Shown: piece by piece, positions 4,965-19,602 of the stretch
Layout: every line of letters begins with the position of its first letter
Position numbering within the stretch: the first letter of the stretch is position 1
NCBI GenBank assembly: GCA_049511795.1
Contig: JBEKXS010000001.1
Coordinates: 300,001-332,000, forward strand
DNA from: Candidatus Saccharimonadota bacterium
GTDB lineage: Archaea; Nanobdellota; Nanobdellia; Pacearchaeales; GW2011-AR1
Length of the DNA stretch: 32,000 nt
Direction of reading: 5' to 3'
Notes under the pieces: generated by a model
Database searches by the model: none
Told to the model about the DNA's origin: nothing
The model's input: the letters and a program-made list of their open reading frames with translations, nothing else
Position numbers and translations under genes: made by a program

Positions 4965-5008
4965 GGATATATTTTAAAACAAGAATTCTTAGTAAAATTA
5001 TCAAATTT

Positions 5009-5092
5009 GCGGGAATGCCGGAGCGGTCAAACGGGCAACGCTAAGGACGTTGTGGCTTAGTGCCTGCGAAGGTTCGAATCCTTCTTCCCGCA
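5009..5092 (+). tRNA. Class II tRNA-Leu; the anticodon loop reads CUAAGGA, giving a nominal anticodon AAG
   Basis: Manual cloverleaf: acceptor GCGGGAA/TTCCCGC; D arm CCG-GAGCGGTCAAA-CGG; anticodon stem CAACG/CGTTG; long variable arm TGGCTTAGTGCCTGC; T arm GAAGG-TTCGAAT-CCTTC; discriminator A. No CCA is encoded. Confidence 0.85.
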
Positions 5093-5179
5093 TAAACTTT
5101 ATAAATGACATAAAACTCACATTTTTACCTGCGAGTTGCTCGCGTTAGCAGGAATTAATACTTCTTGCTTGATTCAAAA

Positions 5180-6823: not shown

Positions 6824-7243
6824 CTATTTTATTCCCAATTTTTCAAGCTTATTCTGAACATGGTTAAATAGTGTTGTTGATATTATTGCCTTGTGATTTC
6901 CGTCAAAAGTCTGGTTATTGAACTTAATTTTCCCTATATAAGTGAAATTCTTAAGTATCTTTTTAAGTCCATTAACGGAAAGTTTATGCTTTTGGGCAAC
7001 TTTTCTTAGACTAATATTATTTTCTAGAAATTCCTCAAAAATCTCCTGAATCTCAATGTAATTTTCAGCAGGAATTAGTTTTTTGTCTTCAATTTTGTAG
7101 CCAAATGGGGCTCTGGACATCAAATTTCCTTTTGTTGCGCTTTTAATCATGGACTTCTTTTGGTTTTCTTTTATTATTTTAGATTTTTCAAGCTCTTTTC
7201 TTAATTCCTCATTTTCTATTCTAAGCTTTTCAAGTTCATCCAT
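6824..7243 (-). CDS. Serine-recombinase 'Recombinase' (DNA-binding) domain protein that lacks the resolvase catalytic domain; N-terminal coiled coil
   Basis: 139 aa. SRAPFGYKIEDKKLIPAENYIEIQEIFEEFL...ISLRKVAQKH...TYIGKIKFNN...GNHKAIISTTLFNHVQNKL follows the pattern of the Recombinase domain of large serine recombinases. The N-terminus is only a short heptad-rich segment (MDELEKLRIENEELRKELEK). Confidence 0.6.
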   Translation of the reverse strand: MDELEKLRIENEELRKELEKSKIIKENQKKSMIKSATKGNLMSRAPFGYKIEDKKLIPAENYIEIQEIFEEFLENNISLRKVAQKHKLSVNGLKKILKNFTYIGKIKFNNQTFDGNHKAIISTTLFNHVQNKLEKLGIK

Positions 7244-12541: not shown

Positions 12542-12907
12542 TTAATCAAAATCTAAAGATTTGAAGATTTTAATAACTCTGTTAATATCGTCTTTGCTTA
12601 AAGTCTTAAAAATTTCGGGTTTTTCTATTCTTAGTTTTTCTAATGCTTGAGGTAGAATAGTCATGGTTCCATTCTCTTTTATTTTAATATATGACTCAAA
12701 TTCTTCTTTATAATTTGGAGCGAATCTGTGACAGTTTCTACATAAGGTTATTAAATTATTTATATTATCTTTACCTTCAAAGACTAATGGTGTTATGTGA
12801 TGCACTTCTAGCTTATTACCAGTTTCATCATTTAACCGGCATTTTTGGCATGTAAATTTATCTCTTTTTAGTGCTTGTTTTCTTAAAGTTTGGTTTCTTG
12901 TTTTCAT
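12542..12907 (-). CDS. HNH endonuclease
   Basis: CQKCRLNDETGNKLEVHHITPLVFEGKDNINNLITLCRNCHRF shows CxxC...HH...N...N...CxxCH. The ATG at 12907 is one nucleotide after the xerA stop (TAA-A-ATG). Confidence 0.8.
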   Translation of the reverse strand: MKTRNQTLRKQALKRDKFTCQKCRLNDETGNKLEVHHITPLVFEGKDNINNLITLCRNCHRFAPNYKEEFESYIKIKENGTMTILPQALEKLRIEKPEIFKTLSKDDINRVIKIFKSLDFD

Positions 12908-12908
12908 T

Positions 12909-13736
12909 TTACAAACTATCAATCGGACTTTTTATTTTCTTTAATTCTTCCTGACTAATATGGGTGTAAATCTGTGTCGTGTTTAGGTCTGCATGGCCCA
13001 AAAGCTCTTGGATTTTCCTTATGTCTGTGTTATTTTCCAGAAGATGTGTTGCAAAGCTATGCCTTAATGTATGTGGGTGTACACTCTTTTTTATTCCTGC
13101 TTTCTGTGCTGATTTAACAACTATTTTTTGGATATTTCTGGAAGATAAAGGACCTTTTGCTCCTGTGAAAAGATATTCCTGGTTGTTTTCTTTCTGCATT
13201 TCTGCTTGTTTCTTTAGTCTTAATGCAAGAGTTTCTGGTATATTGAATGTTCTGTCTTTTCTTCCTTTTCCCTGCCTTATCTGACCTATGCCCTCTTCAA
13301 AGTTGATCTCTTTAATTTTCAGGCCTGTTAGCTCAGATACCCTCATTCCACAAGCGTAGAGCATTGAAATCATAAGTCTGCTTTTTTTGTTTTCTGTAGA
13401 ATCAATCAGTGCCTTGATCTCTTCTTTTGTAAGAACAGCTGGAATTTTTCTTTCTCTTTTTGGGCGTTTGATGTTCTCTGTTGGGTTTCTCTGGAAAACA
13501 ACAGAATAGGCATATTTTATTGCAGAAAGGAAAAGCACAATTGATGAAGATGTTTTGTCTGATAGATTTTGAGCCATAAATGCCTTAATGTCATCCTGAT
13601 CTATTGCCTCAGGGCTTTTATTTAAGAAATCCAGGAGTTTTTGATTTGCAGTTACATAGTTCCTAACTGTATAGTCTGAGTTCTTGGATATCTTTAATTC
13701 TGTTTCCAACTTTTTCAGAAACACTTCTTTTTCCAT
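12909..13736 (-). CDS. xerA: Tyrosine recombinase, XerA/XerCD-like
   Basis: 275 aa. An N-terminal SAM-like core-binding domain is followed by a catalytic domain with R (CGMRVSEL), HxxR (HTLRHSFATH), H (LLGHADL) and Y (TQIYTH). Confidence 0.9.
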   Translation of the reverse strand: MEKEVFLKKLETELKISKNSDYTVRNYVTANQKLLDFLNKSPEAIDQDDIKAFMAQNLSDKTSSSIVLFLSAIKYAYSVVFQRNPTENIKRPKRERKIPAVLTKEEIKALIDSTENKKSRLMISMLYACGMRVSELTGLKIKEINFEEGIGQIRQGKGRKDRTFNIPETLALRLKKQAEMQKENNQEYLFTGAKGPLSSRNIQKIVVKSAQKAGIKKSVHPHTLRHSFATHLLENNTDIRKIQELLGHADLNTTQIYTHISQEELKKIKSPIDSL

Positions 13737-13746
13737 GTATTTGCTA

Positions 13747-13812
13747 GTGCGAACTTATTTATAAAAAAGTGCTGTAATTATTGAGTTCGTACAATACATC
13801 TTGTGCGAAGTT
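13747..13812. promoter_or_regulatory. Three copies of a GTGCGAA(C/G)TT-like 10-mer around the xerA TATA box (candidate operator or recombinase-binding sites)
   Basis: GTGCGAACTT at 13747-13756. AGTTCGTAC at 13784-13792 is the inverted copy with one mismatch. GTGCGAAGTT at 13803-13812. TTATTTATAAAAAA lies between the first two. Confidence 0.35.
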
Positions 13813-13832
13813 TTACTAAGGAAATTTTGTTT

Positions 13833-14207
13833 TTAGATGAAAGGATCTCTTCCAACTCTTCTTCTTTTAATTTCTGCCGCTCTTTCGACTAATGATTTAT
13901 CTGAATTTTCTAATTCTGTTAACTTAGGTAAGCTTTGTGCACGTGCTTCAAGTGTTGATTTCTCAACTGCTGCATCATATCTCTTCCTAAATTCTGATTT
14001 AAGGTCAAGGGTATGAATATATTCTTTAACAAAAATTCTGTATTTTGGGTTTAGAGAAACTTGTGCCATTTCTTCTGGGGACATGCCTAAGCTAGGTAAA
14101 TCAACCCCTAATGAGCGATAATAATCAGCCCTTGATTCTGCAAATTTATTCCTTTTTATTGCCAATATCCTCATTATTCTCTTAAATTCTGGAGAGAGAT
14201 TATCCAT
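13833..14207 (-). CDS. Hypothetical helical protein
   Basis: 124 aa ORF, co-directional with and upstream of xerA. No motif recognised. Confidence 0.5.
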   Translation of the reverse strand: MDNLSPEFKRIMRILAIKRNKFAESRADYYRSLGVDLPSLGMSPEEMAQVSLNPKYRIFVKEYIHTLDLKSEFRKRYDAAVEKSTLEARAQSLPKLTELENSDKSLVERAAEIKRRRVGRDPFI

Positions 14208-14372
14208 AAAACACTGAAAAAGCTGAAGTTTTTAAGAATTTATATAATAAAAGAGACAGACTTCAAAGTATTCTGAAATAATTATGACCCTTCTTGTGCA
14301 ATTAGGTCATCTTAATGAAGACGTTGGAATAAAGTTAAAGTAAAATAAAAAACAAATTAGAGTAACTAGGAC

Positions 14373-14540
14373 TTATCTCTTTTTAGATCCGTAGTTTCTC
14401 ATGAGCTTGCCAATTCCCATTACTAGGAATGATAGGCCTATCAACCAACTTGATAGTGTTACTCCTATATCCAAATTGAGTAAAGGCAATAGCCACAATA
14501 CTCCAATAAGAGTAACAAGCCAGGCACTTAGTTTTGCCAT
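14373..14540 (-). CDS. Small two-TM membrane protein (55 aa; below the ORF-track cut-off)
   Basis: Manual translation: MAKLSAWLVTLIGVLWLLPLLNLDIGVTLSSWLIGLSFLVMGIGKLMRNYGSKKR. A GGAGGT Shine-Dalgarno (complement of 14551-14556) lies 10 nt upstream of the ATG. Confidence 0.45.
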   Translation of the reverse strand: MAKLSAWLVTLIGVLWLLPLLNLDIGVTLSSWLIGLSFLVMGIGKLMRNYGSKKR

Positions 14541-14776
14541 TTAAATTCATACCTCCTTTCGTTCAAGTTATAGGAAAAAAGAGATTATAAACATTTCGAA
14601 AGCTAGTGAAAAAGGTTGCAAAAATATATGAGAAAAAAGAGCAAAAAAACAGCATTTTCAGACTATTTTCAGGGAAAAGAGGGTTTGTCGACGGAATTTT
14701 AATATTTTGATGCAAATTTTTTGCAAGAATTTTTGTTTTGGGCGAGTTTTGTGCACTAAGGTTAGCTTTGTGCATA

Positions 14777-14889
14777 GGTGTTTAGAGGTCGCTGTTTGGT
14801 GTTTGTTGGAGTAGAGTGCTGTTTGATGATGTTTAAACAGGCTGTTTGGGGCTGTTTATAGGTGTTTTTTAAGACATTTTTGTCTGTTT
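14777..14889 (+). repeat. Iteron array: nine same-orientation copies of G[C/G/A]TGTTT (the last copy is TCTGTTT)
   Basis: Copies start at 14777, 14791, 14798, 14818, 14828, 14841, 14851, 14861 and 14883. Several are spaced about 10 bp apart. Nearby are a TTTGTGCA direct repeat (14748, 14767) and the palindrome TGCAAATTTTTTGCA (14711-14725). Confidence 0.65.
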
Positions 14890-14965
14890 TTGGAGTTTTG
14901 AAAAGGGTGTGGATAAAAATGGATTTTAGCTAAAAAATAGAGAATTTTCGTCGGGAAAAGAAAAG

Positions 14966-14975
14966 ATATTTAAAC
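14966..14975 (+). promoter_or_regulatory. Putative TATA box with a purine-rich BRE for the 14996 gene (leaderless)
   Basis: GGAAAAGAAAAGATATTTAAAC has its TATA-like element centred about 26 nt upstream of the ATG at 14996. Confidence 0.35.
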
Positions 14976-14995
14976 TATATTTCTTAAGATAATGT

Positions 14996-15604
14996 ATGTT
15001 TGGGTGGCTTTTTGGTAAAAAAGAGAATGAAGCACTAAAAGAGGACACAAAAAAAGGATTTGATTCTGTCAAAAAAGACATAAATTCTGTTGTTGGATGG
15101 ATTAAACACCTTGATTCTGAAGGAAATTCTATGAAAAAAGAAATTAATGAGCTAAAAGAAGCTTTATCGTCGATACAAAATGACATGGAAGGGATGAAAA
15201 ATGTTGTTGCAATAATGAATGAGCTAAGTCCAAAGGCAAAAAATCAAACAGCTAAACAGCTGTTTAACAAACAACCCTCTGTTTATGCTGTTCAAACAGG
15301 TGTTCAAACAGGTGTTCAAACACCAAATTTTGACCAATTTTCAGTAACAGAAAGAGCAATTATTTGGGTACTTTTAAATTCTGATTTAAAATTAGGATAT
15401 GATGATCTTGCTGCAATGCTTGGAAAAGAGAGATCAACAATAAGGGGGCATTTGAACAGAATAAAACAGAAAAGTACAGGATTAATAGAAGAAATCGTTG
15501 AGAAAAATGGGAAAAAAAGGGTATTTGTACCTGAAGAAGTGAAGGAAAAACTATTGAAAAGGGTAAAAGTGAGGCTTAAAGAAGGCAAAAAAGACAAAAA
15601 ATAG
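14996..15604 (+). CDS. Coiled-coil / linker / C-terminal winged-HTH DNA-binding protein (uncharacterised family)
   Basis: 202 aa. N-terminal heptad-rich region (FDSVKKDINSVVGWIKHLDSEGNSMKKEINELKEAL), a VQTGVQTGVQT linker, an HTH (SVTERAIIWVLL...LGYDDLAAMLGKERSTIRGHLNRIKQK) and a basic tail. Confidence 0.7.
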   Translation: MFGWLFGKKENEALKEDTKKGFDSVKKDINSVVGWIKHLDSEGNSMKKEINELKEALSSIQNDMEGMKNVVAIMNELSPKAKNQTAKQLFNKQPSVYAVQTGVQTGVQTPNFDQFSVTERAIIWVLLNSDLKLGYDDLAAMLGKERSTIRGHLNRIKQKSTGLIEEIVEKNGKKRVFVPEEVKEKLLKRVKVRLKEGKKDKK

Positions 15605-15847
15605 AGGAAAATGAAGGTTTTAAGCTAAAAATTAAAGGAAGAAAGTCAAAAAGTGAGAGTTGTTGATAAGGATTTCAAAGGAAAAAATTAGATAAAAAAT
15701 CAAAAATAAGAGAAAACAAAGAAAAATTAAAGAAAGAGTGAAAAAATAAAAAGTCTGAAAGTCGGAAAAAGAGGGTTATTAAGGCTTTTAGGGGAAACTA
15801 TATTAATTAATCGGTATAACGATTAGTTGGTAATTTAATAAGAAGAA

Positions 15848-16660
15848 TTAAATGTCCCTTAGCTGCAGAATCGTCGACAAAGAGGCCACTTTCTTGAGGT
15901 TTTGGGAAACACTCAGCATGATCTGTTTGTTATTTATTTTTGTTTTATCGACGGGAATTCCTTTTTTAAGCAGCCTTCTTATGTAATCTCTTATAGAGCT
16001 TTCTGTAAGTTTTAGTTTCTCAGCAAGAACTCGGTATTCAACAGGGCCTTGTTCTTCCTCTAGCTGGTATAATGTCGAGAAAACCATGAGCTCCTGGTCT
16101 GTAAGATTCTTGAATTTAAGCCTGATTTCCTTCTTCAAACTGTCTAGGGAATCCAGCATTTTTGCAGCATCTTCTATAGGGCTTTGAGATTGGGTTTGAA
16201 AAATTGGCTTTTTAGGCTGGATTATAGGGGATTTTTGTGTGAAAACATGCTGTTGCAAGGGGTTTTTTGGCTTGTTCTCAAGCCAATTGTCTGTCTGTTG
16301 GTCTGTCTGTCTGTCTGTTGGAACCCCTTCATTTCCAGTGGAAAAACCTTGATTTTGGGGTTTTAAAGGGTTTAAAGGCCAACTATGTGTTGGAAAATGT
16401 GTTGGAGTTGTCTGATTTATATGTTGGTTTGCTGGATGTATTGTTGGTTGGTTTATTGGTAAATTTTGTGGTTTTGTGTTGATTTTTTTCAATTCCAAAG
16501 AAATTTTTTCAAGGATTTCACAGATTTTGCCCAAGTCTTGCTTCATTTCAGACATGTCTTTTTTTAAAACAGAAATATCAAAATTAAGAATGTCTATGTC
16601 TCTTTTAACATTCTGGAATGATTCTTTTATTTTGTTGCTGTCTCCTTCCTGTGAGTCCAT
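15848..16660 (-). CDS. Coiled-coil / long P,Q,T-rich linker / C-terminal winged-HTH protein; paralog of the 14996-15604 product
   Basis: 270 aa. The N-terminal FQNVKRDIDILNFDISVLKKDMSEMKQDL parallels FDSVKKDINSVV... in the partner. The linker is about 110 aa of low complexity. The HTH reads LTDQELMVFSTLYQLEEEQGPVEYRVLAEKLKLTESSIRDYIRRLLKKG. Confidence 0.7.
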   Translation of the reverse strand: MDSQEGDSNKIKESFQNVKRDIDILNFDISVLKKDMSEMKQDLGKICEILEKISLELKKINTKPQNLPINQPTIHPANQHINQTTPTHFPTHSWPLNPLKPQNQGFSTGNEGVPTDRQTDQQTDNWLENKPKNPLQQHVFTQKSPIIQPKKPIFQTQSQSPIEDAAKMLDSLDSLKKEIRLKFKNLTDQELMVFSTLYQLEEEQGPVEYRVLAEKLKLTESSIRDYIRRLLKKGIPVDKTKINNKQIMLSVSQNLKKVASLSTILQLRDI

Positions 16661-16732
16661 CGTTTTTTGAAATAATGCCCATATAAAAAGTTAAGTCTCT
16701 TTCAGTATACATATTTGCCCAATAACTGAAAA

Positions 16733-17014
16733 TTATTCTTTCTCAGGTGCGCCAATTGATTTGTAAGCGCTATATACTGAATCACTGAGCTTCCATCTTG
16801 ACCTTTTCATGTAGTCTTTTCCCTTGGAATTCTTCTTGATTTCAAGAACAAGGGCTTTCTTCTTCAGGTCAAGGAGAAGTGCTTTGACAAATTCCTCATC
16901 CCTGACAACTTCCTGGGCAATATGGGATGTAAAATCAGATCTTGGTGAGATAGAATAAAGGAATGCGAGTATTTGCTCTGAGATTTTATCTTTCTTATTG
17001 TTAGATATATTCAT
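16733..17014 (-). CDS. Small winged-helix DNA-binding protein
   Basis: 93 aa. ISEQILAFLYSISPRSDFTSHIAQEVVRDEEFVKALLLDLKKKALV is a typical wHTH layout (H1-H2-recognition helix-wing). Confidence 0.5.
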   Translation of the reverse strand: MNISNNKKDKISEQILAFLYSISPRSDFTSHIAQEVVRDEEFVKALLLDLKKKALVLEIKKNSKGKDYMKRSRWKLSDSVYSAYKSIGAPEKE

Positions 17015-17041: not shown

Positions 17042-17470
17042 TTACTTTTCTTTTTTCTCTTCTGTATTCTCGTTGCTTACAACAGGCATAGGCATGTGTG
17101 TAGGAAGATTCATTTCATCTTCCAATTCAAGGGCCTTTATTGTTGCCTTTCTAAGAATTATATTGAAAACAACATTTCTGAACTCGTCTGGAAGTTTCTT
17201 TTTCTTCCAGTCTCTTAAAGTGTCTTTTGCCTGCTGCTCTTCTAAAGAAAGGATTATTGTGCCTTTAAGGTCGATTTTAGCTATTTCTGGGTCGTATTTA
17301 ACAGTGTAAATAAAGTCAATTTGAATTGGCTTTTCCTCGCCCTTCAAAATATTATCTTTAAGCTCTTCAATATCTTCAATATCTATGTTGGAATTGACGC
17401 TTAATTCTCCCTGTTTTCCTTTGAGTCTTTCAACACTTATCTTACTAAAATTAAATCCCAATATTCTCAT
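17042..17470 (-). CDS. Hypothetical protein (weak resemblance to a SecB-like chaperone fold)
   Basis: 142 aa. Beta-rich N-terminal half, then VVFNIILRKATIKALELEDEMNLPTHMPMP, which is reminiscent of the SecB C-terminal helix/loop. Pattern-level similarity only. Confidence 0.5.
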   Translation of the reverse strand: MRILGFNFSKISVERLKGKQGELSVNSNIDIEDIEELKDNILKGEEKPIQIDFIYTVKYDPEIAKIDLKGTIILSLEEQQAKDTLRDWKKKKLPDEFRNVVFNIILRKATIKALELEDEMNLPTHMPMPVVSNENTEEKKEK

Positions 17471-17585: not shown

Positions 17586-17846
17586 TTAAACTAAATCTTC
17601 TTCTGAAACTATCACAAAGTCCCCTATTGCTATGATAGAATTGTAAGGAACAAGAAGCTCATTTGATGAGGTCTTTTCCAGGTTCAAATTTCTCGTATAA
17701 GGGGTAGAATCTTTCACTACCAAACTTATAAGCTCACCTGATTTTGTCTCAAAGGTGACGTCCCTGACAAAGCCCAGTCTCTTTCCTTCTTTAGTCACAA
17801 TCATCTTTCCTACTATACTTCTAAAGGGATTTTTATCGCCTTGCAT
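17586..17846 (-). CDS. PRC-barrel domain protein
   Basis: 86 aa. GKMIVTKEGKRLGFVRDVTFETKSGELISLVV...LVPYNSIIAIGDFVIV matches the PRC-barrel pattern common in archaea. Confidence 0.7.
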   Translation of the reverse strand: MQGDKNPFRSIVGKMIVTKEGKRLGFVRDVTFETKSGELISLVVKDSTPYTRNLNLEKTSSNELLVPYNSIIAIGDFVIVSEEDLV

Positions 17847-17947: not shown

Positions 17948-18356
17948 ACACCCTCACCCCCTTATTTCCCATAGAAGTATTTAAAAAGAAAAAATTGATT
18001 TTTTTATTTATATTATTTATTTAAAAAAATTTATATTATATAGTATATAGATATATTATATTTTATTATTATATTATAATTATTTACTATAATTTAGTTA
18101 TTTTATCTTATTTTCTTTAAAATTTATTATTAATTTAATTAAGATAATTAATAATTTAATATAACCTAATTAAAATTTTTCTTAGCTAATTCTTGTTAAG
18201 GACTAAAATCCAAAAAATCAAGCAAAAATCCTTTTCCACATGAAATTGAGGCGTTCTTCTTTATTAGTAGTCATAAGTGTTTATATAAAGAATTATTTTT
18301 TTGCCGTTACAAAATATTTCAGGCTTAATTTCTCCACAAGAAACATACGTGTGAGG
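17948..18356. other. Predicted chromosomal replication origin (oriC): ORB-like boxes flanking an A+T-rich unwinding element
   Basis: By my count 18001-18180 holds only 9 G/C in 180 nt. On the left the minus strand reads CTTCTATGGGAAATAAGGGGGTGAGGG (17948-17977). On the right are TTTCCACATGAAATTGAGGCG (18233-18253) and TCTCCACAAGAAACATACGTGTGAGG (18329-18356). orc1/cdc6 lies immediately downstream. Confidence 0.6.
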
Positions 18357-18390: not shown

Positions 18391-19602
18391 ATGAAAGCAG
18401 AACTAGACAAAATATTTGAATCTTTCGACGGAAACAGAATCTTCAAAGACAAATCTATTTTGCAAAGCAATTACAGGCCTGAAGAAATTCCGCACAGGGA
18501 AGAACAGATAAAACAAGTTGCTTCAATACTTGCTCCAGTTCTCAGGGGAGAAAGAACAAGCAATCTTTTTCTTTACGGGAAAACAGGTTCTGGAAAAACA
18601 CTTTCAATTCTCTATGTTAGAGATGAACTGCTGAAAAGGGCAAAGAAAGACAGCGACTTCAACCTAAGAATAGAATACCTAAACTGCAAGCTGAAAAAGG
18701 TTTCTGACACAGAATACAGGATTCTTGCTGAAATGATTAAGAAGCTTGGCGGAGAAGTGCCAAATACTGGATTGCCAACAGAGACAGTTTACAGCAAGTT
18801 TATAGAAATGGTTGACAAAGAGAAACAATTCCTTGTCTTTATTTTGGATGAAATAGACCAAGCTGTAAAAAAAATTTCAAGCGACTTTCTTTACAATCTG
18901 ACAAGGCTTAACTCTGAATTGTCAAAATCACAGATTTGCATTGTTGGAATAAGCAATGACCTTACTTTCCTAGACAACCTTGACCCAAGAGTAAGAAGCT
19001 CTCTTTCTGAAGAAGAAATTGTATTTCCACCATATAATGCATTACAACTCCAGGAGATTCTTAACAAAAGAGCTGAAAACGCATTCAAAGAAAAGGTTGT
19101 TCAGGAAGGTGTCATCGCAAAATGCGCTGCATTTGCTGCAAGGGAGCATGGAGATGCAAGAAGAGCCCTTGACCTGCTCAGAATTGCAGGAGAGATTGCA
19201 GAAAGGGATAATTCAAAGAAAATAATGATGAAATATCTTGATGAGGCAAACACGAAAATTGAAAGGGACAAAATTCTTGATGTAATAAAGACAGAGCCAA
19301 AGCAATTCCAGTATGTTTTGCACTCAATAATAAATTTATCTGAAAAAAATAACGGCAGTCCTGTTTTCACAGGAGATGTTTACAATTTTTATGAGGAAGT
19401 ATGCCTGAAAAACAAGGCAGAAGTTTTGACCCAAAGGCGTGTTTCAGACATTATACAGGAATTTGACATGCTGGGAATAATCAATGTCAAGGTTGTTTCA
19501 AAAGGAAGAGGGGGAAGAATGAGGGAAATTAAACTTGCAATTGCAAAATCAATTACTGAGAAAGCAAAGGAAATAATTGAAGAATCTTTGAGATATAATT
19601 AA
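18391..19602 (+). CDS. cdc6: Orc1/Cdc6 replication initiator (AAA+ with a C-terminal winged helix)
   Basis: 403 aa. Walker A GKTGSGKT, Walker B FILDEID, sensor regions, GDARRALDLLR, and a C-terminal wHTH. Confidence 0.95.
   Translation: MKAELDKIFESFDGNRIFKDKSILQSNYRPEEIPHREEQIKQVASILAPVLRGERTSNLFLYGKTGSGKTLSILYVRDELLKRAKKDSDFNLRIEYLNCKLKKVSDTEYRILAEMIKKLGGEVPNTGLPTETVYSKFIEMVDKEKQFLVFILDEIDQAVKKISSDFLYNLTRLNSELSKSQICIVGISNDLTFLDNLDPRVRSSLSEEEIVFPPYNALQLQEILNKRAENAFKEKVVQEGVIAKCAAFAAREHGDARRALDLLRIAGEIAERDNSKKIMMKYLDEANTKIERDKILDVIKTEPKQFQYVLHSIINLSEKNNGSPVFTGDVYNFYEEVCLKNKAEVLTQRRVSDIIQEFDMLGIINVKVVSKGRGGRMREIKLAIAKSITEKAKEIIEESLRYN

Follow-up and report, generated by a model that had tools for sequence, protein, structure and literature searches.

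Repeat arrays and a putative origin recognition box in the linker codons of two winged-helix genes beside a predicted replication origin of Pacearchaeota

Among the described systems closest to the locus studied here, Pyrococcus carries a cluster of origin recognition boxes (ORBs) inside its dp1 gene that is bound by Cdc6 (PMC1904270), and in Haloarcula hispanica a separate ORB-rich region (oriC2D) restrains oriC2 by titrating Cdc6E (PMC3936714). The euryarchaeal ORB consensus reads GTTCCAGTGGAAAC-AAA----GGGGG (PMC1868953), and the ORB1 oligonucleotide of Pyrococcus, in reverse complement, GTTCCAGTGGAAATGAAACTCTGGGGGG (PMC1904270). The archaeal dif is one site with 11-bp arms and a 6-bp spacer that does not adjoin xerA (PMC2958812), and archaeal cell division involves PRC-barrel proteins, namely CdpB1 and its relatives (bioRxiv 10.1101/2023.03.28.534520). 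Herein, we analyzed a block of DNA at positions 12542-17014 of a 32-kb stretch, called the window hereafter, whose Cdc6 homologues, judged by their source names, place the host in Pacearchaeota/Nanoarchaeota (DPANN lineage); the genes in question, w202 and w270, encode predicted winged-helix proteins and lie near a predicted replication origin, oriC. DPANN archaea are uncultivated, and to our knowledge the control of their replication is largely unknown, a literature search having returned nothing on their origins.

The block, which an earlier note on this DNA had regarded as an island that might be a mobile element, is for the most part ordinary, namely a native conserved origin neighborhood together with XerA. 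Its notable part is found beside oriC, where two winged-helix paralogues specific to the lineage have operator-like arrays and an initiator box in their linker codons. The explanation that best accounts for the whole, to which we assign a probability of about 60%, is a native origin-flanking regulatory module whose arrays would be bound by the winged-helix pair and which would be linked to Orc1/Cdc6.

For the synteny comparison, 80 species-level genomes were anchored on cdc6 with a 10-kb flank on each side (about 20 kb inspected per genome), all window proteins were mapped onto them, and metagenome contigs were added later as deeper relatives by tblastn. Protein families were scanned with Pfam, NCBIfam and PHROGs, RNAs with Rfam, and folds with AlphaFold2 and Foldseek. 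In every locus reaching far enough (about 51 species-level genomes, with Cdc6 identities of 77-97%), the order w202(+)/w270(-)/w93(-)/g142(-)/PRC-barrel(-)/oriC/cdc6(+)/PolD(+) was kept, and it extends to metagenome relatives with 64% identity in Cdc6 and 40-50% in w202. The conservation of w202 across the clade is about that of PolD, and the block is carried at 8/8 same-species contig places, these being all contigs that reach it. The left part, on the other hand, varies gene by gene between the 80 genomes and never as a unit. Since the right edge of the block cuts a conserved cluster (g142, PRC-barrel, oriC, cdc6 and PolD) and its left part is variable, 12542-17014 is not a natural unit, and the single island of the earlier note falls into two unrelated pieces. 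One of them (about 12.5-14.3 kb) is part of a variable spacer that holds XerA, an accessory HNH gene and a probably spurious orphan open reading frame (ORF), and the other, at about 14.4-17.0 kb and continuing as far as 24.7 kb, forms the left arm of an origin-flanking module that is inherited vertically in Pacearchaeota. The right two-thirds of the block are syntenic, vertically conserved and host-like, a pattern that the earlier note had itself taken to argue against a mobile element. Four deeper relatives carry an insertion of 4-6.5 kb between w93 and g142; w202-w270-w93 with the array stay together there, parted from g142-PRC-oriC-cdc6. Two independent same-species assemblies stop inside w270, at window positions of about 16067 and 16088, which hints at strain variation or an assembly problem at that place.

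As summarized in Table 1, w202 and w270 were predicted to share a three-part build of N-terminal helix, disordered linker and C-terminal winged helix. The linker of w202 was modeled with low confidence, and the C-terminal domains of both proteins reached a predicted local distance difference test score of about 90. Foldseek matched w202 to MepR, MarR and the Lrs14-like AbfR2 of Sulfolobus with a probability of 1.0 (E 1e-4 for MepR; 28% identity for AbfR2), and its C-terminal domain, as modeled, is a MarR/Lrs14-like winged-helix fold with a predicted dimerizing helix. No Pfam family scored above its cutoff for w202, and sequence searches of w202, w270, w93 and g142 against PDB chains gave at best weak coiled-coil or helix-turn-helix (HTH) matches. 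The w202 family is narrow, comprising 279 clusters among 1.84 billion representatives, and its members are all annotated as hypothetical or as generic HTH proteins. Alignment of the w202 and w270 families by hhalign (probability 90.6%, E 1.3e-6, collinear over 167 columns) identifies the two, at the level of sequence profiles, as paralogues. The three winged-helix genes of the earlier note are in this way confirmed for w202 and w270, the latter also by Pfam, and weakly backed for the 93-aa protein w93, which gave a profile match to MarR-type chains at E ~0.1 and an hhalign E of 0.09 and is probably a winged helix; w93 as a paralogue of w202/w270 is unsupported (hhalign E 0.09-0.25).

The upstream array consists of short half-sites that recur at fixed places in the relatives. 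Seven copies of GSTGTTT lie on one strand within 14777-14867 (91 bp), for which about 0.015 would be expected in that stretch (Poisson), and the whole 32-kb window holds 20 matches on both strands against 10.3 expected. Across the relatives, GCTGTTT occurs at 2.78 copies per genome in the interval -200..0 of w202 (45 genomes) and at 1.94 copies per genome at +200..+400, compared with about 0.05 per 200 bp elsewhere, which amounts to a 40- to 50-fold enrichment at two fixed places around the w202 start (45-51 genomes). Same-strand half-sites show a modal spacing of 10 bp with a median of 10 cores per upstream region, and opposed half-sites make the palindromes AAACAGSTGTTT and TGTTTAAACA. The array lies 110-230 bp upstream of the w202 promoter, and the second array lies about 240-330 bp into w202. 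The repeats that the earlier note had called an iteron array are therefore real and conserved, although their reading as plasmid-type iterons does not hold, no Rep gene being found. Lone half-sites lie over the w202 start codon (ATGTTTGG, with an invariant M-F, 14996-15001) and at about +108 (AAACACC in WIKHL, ~15103-15110), both of which are conserved among the genomes compared.

The intragenic array encodes KQ(L/V)F(N/D)KQ..VYAVQTGVQTGVQT among relatives, and its codons fall in the disordered linker. Excess codon homozygosity was 0.3-0.4 in the w202 linker (codons 81-120) compared with 0.04-0.15 in the folded winged helix; in the linker, for instance, every Thr is encoded by ACA and every Ala by GCT, and CAG encodes one Gln although the codon used elsewhere is CAA. 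With low-complexity words removed (poly-A words contaminate the test otherwise), the upstream array shared 9.2 complex 8-mers with the linker DNA of its own genome and 7.2 with the linkers of other genomes (0/5000 permutations), compared with 1.55 for a control coding segment. In two genomes, moreover, the synonymous GTC variant of the coding repeat is present in the non-coding array too. The codon fixation, the within-genome 8-mer sharing and the shared GTC variant together show that in the linker selection acts on the DNA itself and that both arrays co-evolve.

The paralogue w270 carries a different element in its linker codons. In this otherwise variable linker the peptide FSTGNEGVPTDRQTD is nearly invariant, and the DNA that encodes it is TTTTCCACTGGAAATGAAGGGGTTCC followed by (GACA)n. 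The box matches both the euryarchaeal consensus and Pyrococcus ORB1 and was found in 51/54 genomes; eight of its third-codon positions are invariant or nearly so, and the degenerate central dinucleotide varies, the residue changing among T, S, I and N. With its dyad TTCCAnnGGAAA and G-string kept at the DNA level, the box is a canonical ORB as judged by its match to these sequences. It lies about 1.65 kb from the predicted unwinding region and has the orientation of the left-hand oriC box. In most of the 54 genomes the ORB is followed by 3-10 GACA units; three genomes lack the tract, and a few have it elsewhere in the gene. Since slippage by one unit would shift the frame, the persistence of an in-frame (GACA)n is noteworthy. 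An A-rich tandem-repeat spacer (15605-15847) separates the intragenic array from the ORB.

The predicted core promoter of w202 lies between the upstream array and the gene. The TATA-like ATATTTAAA is located 22-30 nt before the ATG. In 22/44 loci the distance from the TCGWCG box to the start codon is 46-48 nt, a position at which the box is enriched, and we infer that the two elements may together form the w202 core promoter. TCGWCG(A) is a CG-containing palindrome that is rare in such AT-rich DNA and occurs in the window at 14688, 14948, 15167, 15871 and 15948; its fixed spots are before the w202 TATA box, in the LSS codons of w202 (with synonymous sites fixed too) and near the w270 3' end, and in related loci it stands at about -48 and +170 of w202. 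What is conserved vertically is the trio of winged-helix genes together with its cis-elements and not a combination of XerA and binders, and so the native recombination module suggested in the earlier note is upheld as native and conserved but not in its composition, XerA being loosely linked (22/49 loci) and no ParA/SegA-type partner being present in the window.

These elements suggest a binding-and-looping model, which on the sequence patterns we consider slightly better than an even bet. Dimers or higher oligomers of w202, and perhaps of w270 too, would bind the upstream and intragenic arrays, and the long N-terminal helices, which are suited to oligomerization, would bridge the two arrays. 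Such bridging would enclose the promoter and the 5' portion of w202 in a loop and set the level of w202 itself. Autoregulation of w202 is plausible since Lrs14 represses its own promoter. Orc1/Cdc6 bound to the w270 box might affect transcription of the g142-w93-w270 operon, or the site might titrate Orc1. The far-reaching version of this model, in which w202/w270 and the origin would form a self-contained circuit with cis-elements in its own linker codons, coupling initiator occupancy, regulator transcription and origin firing, is speculative, and we consider it doubtful. If it were true, the circuit would be a device for origin licensing or initiator titration that has no described counterpart in archaea, found in a lineage for which hardly any cell-cycle regulators are known.

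Several points weigh against the regulatory module as we propose it. Against cutoffs of 80 and 90 bits for Sta1 and Lrs14, w202 scored 20.1 and 13.6 and w270 16.4 and 18.2, respectively. The w202 linker peptide is itself conserved, so that some protein-level selection may act on it. Judging from the sequences, the arrays could also be bound by w270, w93 or an unlinked factor. On L204, a metagenome contig with XerA at its end, an unrelated gene of 192 aa has clustered copies of the motif AAACAGCTGTTT/TGTTTAAACA on either side (L204:1000-1860), and no w202 was detectable near the motif there; this may represent a replaced locus or further targets of the motif, i.e., a wider regulon, and the motif is accordingly not strictly tied to w202. 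A hidden Markov model search for a divergent w202 in array-bearing contigs that lacked a tblastn match found nothing, the search having no positive control; most arrays on w202-less contigs lie within about 250 nt of the contig end, and w202 may be located beyond it. Arrays may also exist elsewhere in the genomes, given the portion inspected in each. Finally, a lone ORB at this distance from the unwinding region may bind Orc1 weakly, by analogy with the lone mini-ORB of Pyrococcus, which was bound poorly (PMC1904270).

Table 1. Features of the block and of the adjoining predicted origin, in window coordinates
Feature	Coordinates	Strand	Description	Evidence
HNH gene	12542-12922	-	Small stand-alone HNH endonuclease	Pfam HNH, 47.4 bits
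xerA	12909-13736	-	XerA, archaeal Xer-type tyrosine recombinase resolving chromosome dimers	NCBIfam recomb_XerA_Arch
124-aa ORF	13833-14207	-	Orphan ORF, probably spurious	No family match (Pfam, NCBIfam, PHROGs)
g55	14373-14540	-	55-aa two-helix membrane protein	Homologues in relatives; no family assigned, weak DUF308 match
TGTGCAC element	14750-14774	+	TGTGCACTWAGGT-TAGC-TTAGTG, about 26 nt	GC-rich box and AAATTTTT before the element
Upstream array	14777-14890	+	Nine TGTTT cores (half-site RGSTGTTT), including TGTTTAAACAGGCTGTTT	Motif counts
Predicted w202 core promoter	14948-14974	+	TCGTCG (TCGWCG) box, 14948-14953; TATA-like ATATTTAAA, 14966-14974	Sequence; position in relatives
w202	14996-15604	+	202 aa: N-terminal helix 4-77, disordered linker 78-116, C-terminal winged helix and terminal helix	AlphaFold2
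Intragenic array	15246-15325	+	AAACAGCTAAACAGCTGTTT, then (TGTTCAAACAGG)x2.8, encoding KQLFNKQ..VYAVQTGVQTGVQT	Tandem repeat (12 bp); motif counts
w270	15848-16660	-	270 aa: N-terminal helix 4-61, disordered linker 62-160, winged helix	AlphaFold2; Pfam HTH_11, 27.5 bits (cutoff 25)
(GACA)n/(TGTC)n tract	16288-16319	-	Adjoins the ORB; translated DRQTD(R/Q)QTD	Tandem Repeats Finder, (TGTC)7.8
Putative ORB in w270	16320-16345	-	TTTTCCACTGGAAATGAAGGGGTTCC, translated FSTGNEGVP	Match to published consensus
w93	16733-17014	-	Small conserved protein, 93 aa	Syntenic in all loci reaching w93
g142	17042-17470	-	Conserved protein	Synteny; no family or PDB match
PRC-barrel gene	17586-17846	-	PRC-barrel protein	Pfam PRC, 41 bits; synteny
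Predicted oriC	17951-18356	.	Inverted ORB with G-string, 17951-17976(-); AT-rich unwinding region, ~17990-18180; forward ORBs, 18232-18253 and 18329-18356	Sequence

A decayed or domesticated integrated plasmid or provirus beside the origin, in which the recombinase would be an integrase, the winged-helix proteins regulators and the repeats iterons, was one of the possibilities raised in the earlier note, and we now regard it as most improbable. The recombinase does match PHROG integrase families and the HNH protein phage HNH families, and the variable DNA that separates the ribosomal operon from w202 looks like an insertion hotspot, with a serine-recombinase 'Recombinase'-domain remnant at 6824-7243 (-) in the window and full resolvase-type genes upstream of w202 in five relatives. 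However, neither the 80 genomes nor the same-species contigs show presence or absence of the block as a unit, and the recombinase is a XerA equivalog. The earlier note's own failure to find flanking direct repeats or a tRNA target was borne out: no direct repeat pairing the block ends was detected when the full window was searched with a 12-nt seed, and no tRNA lies near the block, the single tRNA of the window being at 5008-5093. A 27-nt inverted repeat at 12599/14216, rich in A/T, was taken to be fortuitous. The check for a foreign k-mer signal found the block typical of its surroundings, its tetranucleotide distance ranking 15/56 in the window at a GC content of 0.333. As the earlier note had also remarked, no Rep/helicase or capsid gene is present, and we found no terminase gene either, in the Pfam, NCBIfam and PHROGs scans. 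Strong family matches in the block were confined to recombinase, HNH and HTH families; apart from the recombinase and HNH proteins, the PHROGs matches were weak (E of 2e-5 at best) and fell on the coiled-coil part of w202, with no replication, packaging or capsid family among them, and w202 had no relative among the 2.9 million viral contigs of IMG/VR. The block is thus very probably native chromosome and not a mobile island, although it is formally conceivable, as a variant of the same idea, that an element was domesticated very early, at the base of the clade.

The remaining rivals accept the locus as native and assign other functions to it. The arrays might be a centromere-like site with w202/w270 as its binders, comparable to ParB/parS, Sulfolobus SegB and AspA of pNOB8, and XerA might belong to the same maintenance module. 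The array is indeed origin-proximal, multi-copy, phased and partly inside the gene of a DNA-binding protein, just as parS of B. subtilis lies within spo0J, and long coiled coils suit bridging and XerA is often nearby. We nevertheless consider this unlikely, because the window proteins scanned (32 kb) included no ATPase of the ParA/SegA/MinD type and no SMC, the XerA linkage is loose, and the array is placed like an upstream regulatory site beside a core promoter, with the L204 motif found at another gene. Rather more unlikely is a reading in which the DNA that extends from the arrays as far as the w270 box would be part of the origin or a second origin, with w202/w270 as accessory initiators, as in iteron plasmids or WhiP at Sulfolobus oriC3: a canonical ORB in w270 oriented like the left-hand oriC box, the A-rich spacer and winged-helix proteins encoded on site speak for such a reading, but this stretch is nearly all coding, a complete conserved canonical origin is already predicted at 17.95-18.36 kb, and neither Pfam nor the AlphaFold2 models give w202 or w270 an AAA+ or Rep domain. 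It is very unlikely, finally, that the repeats act as RNA, through pairing of a 5' leader with the w202 linker codons, or that the repeats or TGTGCAC elements are XerA sites (dif-like or cassette). The upstream repeats are mostly GCTGTTT and the intragenic ones mostly AAACAGC (85:40 compared with 34:65), so that the two sets could pair; the TATA-like box, however, implies from its distance to the ATG a near-leaderless mRNA, with the array not transcribed together with the gene, the motif variants are shared in the same orientation and not as complements, and no consensus RNA structure or Rfam match was obtained. As to XerA, the TGTGCAC element has a partial dyad and sits between xerA and w202, whereas its arms are 7 bp and imperfect, its spacer is 5 bp, as many as three copies lie in direct orientation, and the element is also found where XerA is missing; dif is a single 11-6-11 site (PMC2958812), and the element was rejected as dif on these grounds.

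The TGTGCAC element adjoins the upstream array within the 455-bp non-coding stretch 14541-14995, and weaker copies lie at 14295-14317 and 13917-13941 (+). It occurs in 1-3 copies per genome about 0.2-2 kb upstream of w202 (loci L011 to L088); only two of its matches in the anchored loci fall on the strand opposite to w202, and only one does not lie upstream of w202. The proximal copy adjoins the array, another copy often lies 50-75 nt beyond the g55 stop, and the (TTAGN)3 core leads to stop codons in three frames of the + strand. RNAalifold on 69 copies of the element yielded no consensus pairs, and a 7-bp hairpin gave inconsistent pair counts. In the whole window, tRNA-Leu was the sole RNA gene at the Rfam gathering thresholds, and a permissive Rfam scan of 13700-15100 gave one sub-threshold snoRNA-like match (E 0.77); a scan for bacterial-type promoters and terminators was uninformative, the host being archaeal. 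Homologues of g55 (44-75% identity) were located just upstream of the array in 20/80 anchored genomes and on further metagenome contigs.

In the left piece, the HNH, tyrosine recombinase and 124-aa genes listed in the earlier note, like the 55-aa membrane protein, are all present (Table 1). The recombinase scored 245.9 bits against the equivalog model NF040815 (recomb_XerA_Arch; cutoff 220), and the catalytic R, K, H-x-x-R, H and Y are all visible in its translation, which identify it, at the sequence level, as a bona fide XerA. The xerA gene was located at most 5 kb upstream of w202 in 22/49 loci and divergent from it in 26/26 cases, the intervening DNA measuring 0.8-4.6 kb and being unrelated between loci, and the XerA orthologues near w202 are 61-76% identical. 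No dif-type site (single, with 11-bp inverted arms and a 6-bp spacer) was found within the block. The HNH ORF encodes 126 aa, or 121 aa if the ATG at 12907 is used; the JGI gene call also gives 121 aa, and the true start is likely the latter, which leaves 1 base between the HNH gene and xerA directly upstream of it. The HNH protein matches many PHROG HNH families. Because an HNH gene stands behind xerA in 7/27 related loci, it is an accessory gene; the seven xerA-adjoining HNH genes form one class of about 100-120 aa and another of about 211 aa, as if the gene had been gained or lost repeatedly at this place, and the protein may be a selfish homing nuclease or a partner of XerA. In about 200 related loci, tblastn found no homologue of the 124-aa ORF outside its own species. 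The ORF contains a degenerate TGTGCAC element (13917-13941) and is probably not a real gene.

Outside the block, the left end of the window holds ribosomal-protein and RNA-polymerase genes, followed by a variable stretch with the serine-recombinase remnant, MGMT, HAD, MgtC, small membrane proteins and a PD-(D/E)XK nuclease. To the right, g142 and the PRC-barrel gene lie beyond 17014 and yet belong to the same conserved cluster; the PRC-barrel gene is fixed directly beside oriC clade-wide, and its neighbor g142 is equally conserved. The oriC/cdc6/PolD cluster that the earlier note had placed to the right was found there: the AT-rich region, in which the GC content drops to 0.27, precedes cdc6 (18391-19602), with the two forward ORBs just ahead of the gene, and both PolD subunits and more housekeeping genes follow. 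The two forward ORBs are kept in nearly all of the 74-77 loci, and the boxes conform to the published euryarchaeal consensus (PMC1868953), which supports its prediction as an origin.

The analysis removes the mobile-island lead and replaces it with a clade-wide map of the Pacearchaeota origin neighborhood, which contains canonical origin boxes, one more box within a coding sequence and a winged-helix pair with a candidate binding motif. The locus is also a clear case in which a function at the DNA level constrains the codons of a disordered linker, and it calls for caution in reading linker conservation as a protein-level signal. The predictions made here are testable with recombinant proteins and synthetic DNA, and need no culture.

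Compared with the known systems, the locus resembles the XerA/dif system of Thermococcales (PMC2958812) in its XerA orthologue and in the varying position of xerA relative to oriC, and it differs in that the nearby TGTGCAC elements misfit a single-copy 11-6-11 dif; the sporadic HNH gene behind xerA is absent from that account, no literature search on it having been made. With iteron replicons and ParB/parS it shares short, phased, same-strand repeats by a winged-helix gene, with some sites inside the gene, but no Rep, partition NTPase, plasmid or virus context or presence/absence polymorphism was found. Its repeats are 8-bp half-sites at 10-bp phasing, unlike the 17-22-bp iterons of plasmids, and it was assigned neither to the iteron plasmid replicons, in view of this geometry and the missing Rep family, nor to ParABS/SegAB, whose ATPase families were not among the window proteins scanned. 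With the Lrs14/Sta1/AbfR and MarR regulators, w202 shares the C-terminal fold, both paralogues give weak Sta1/Lrs14 profile matches, and the candidate sites of w202 cluster at its own promoter, as with Lrs14-type regulators. In contrast to these, w202 and w270 add an N-terminal helix of 60-75 residues and a long linker, and the candidate sites of w202 form a phased array of about 10 half-sites with a second array in the coding sequence; with scores far under the curated cutoffs, it is the fold alone that matches, and the two were not placed in the Lrs14/Sta1 family. As in Pyrococcus and Haloarcula, finally, cdc6 stands beside an AT-rich region with inverted ORBs, and an extra conserved ORB with its G-string lies in a neighboring gene; unlike in those, this putative binding site is a single box, set in the disordered-linker codons of a gene for a predicted DNA-binding protein and followed by an in-frame (GACA)n.

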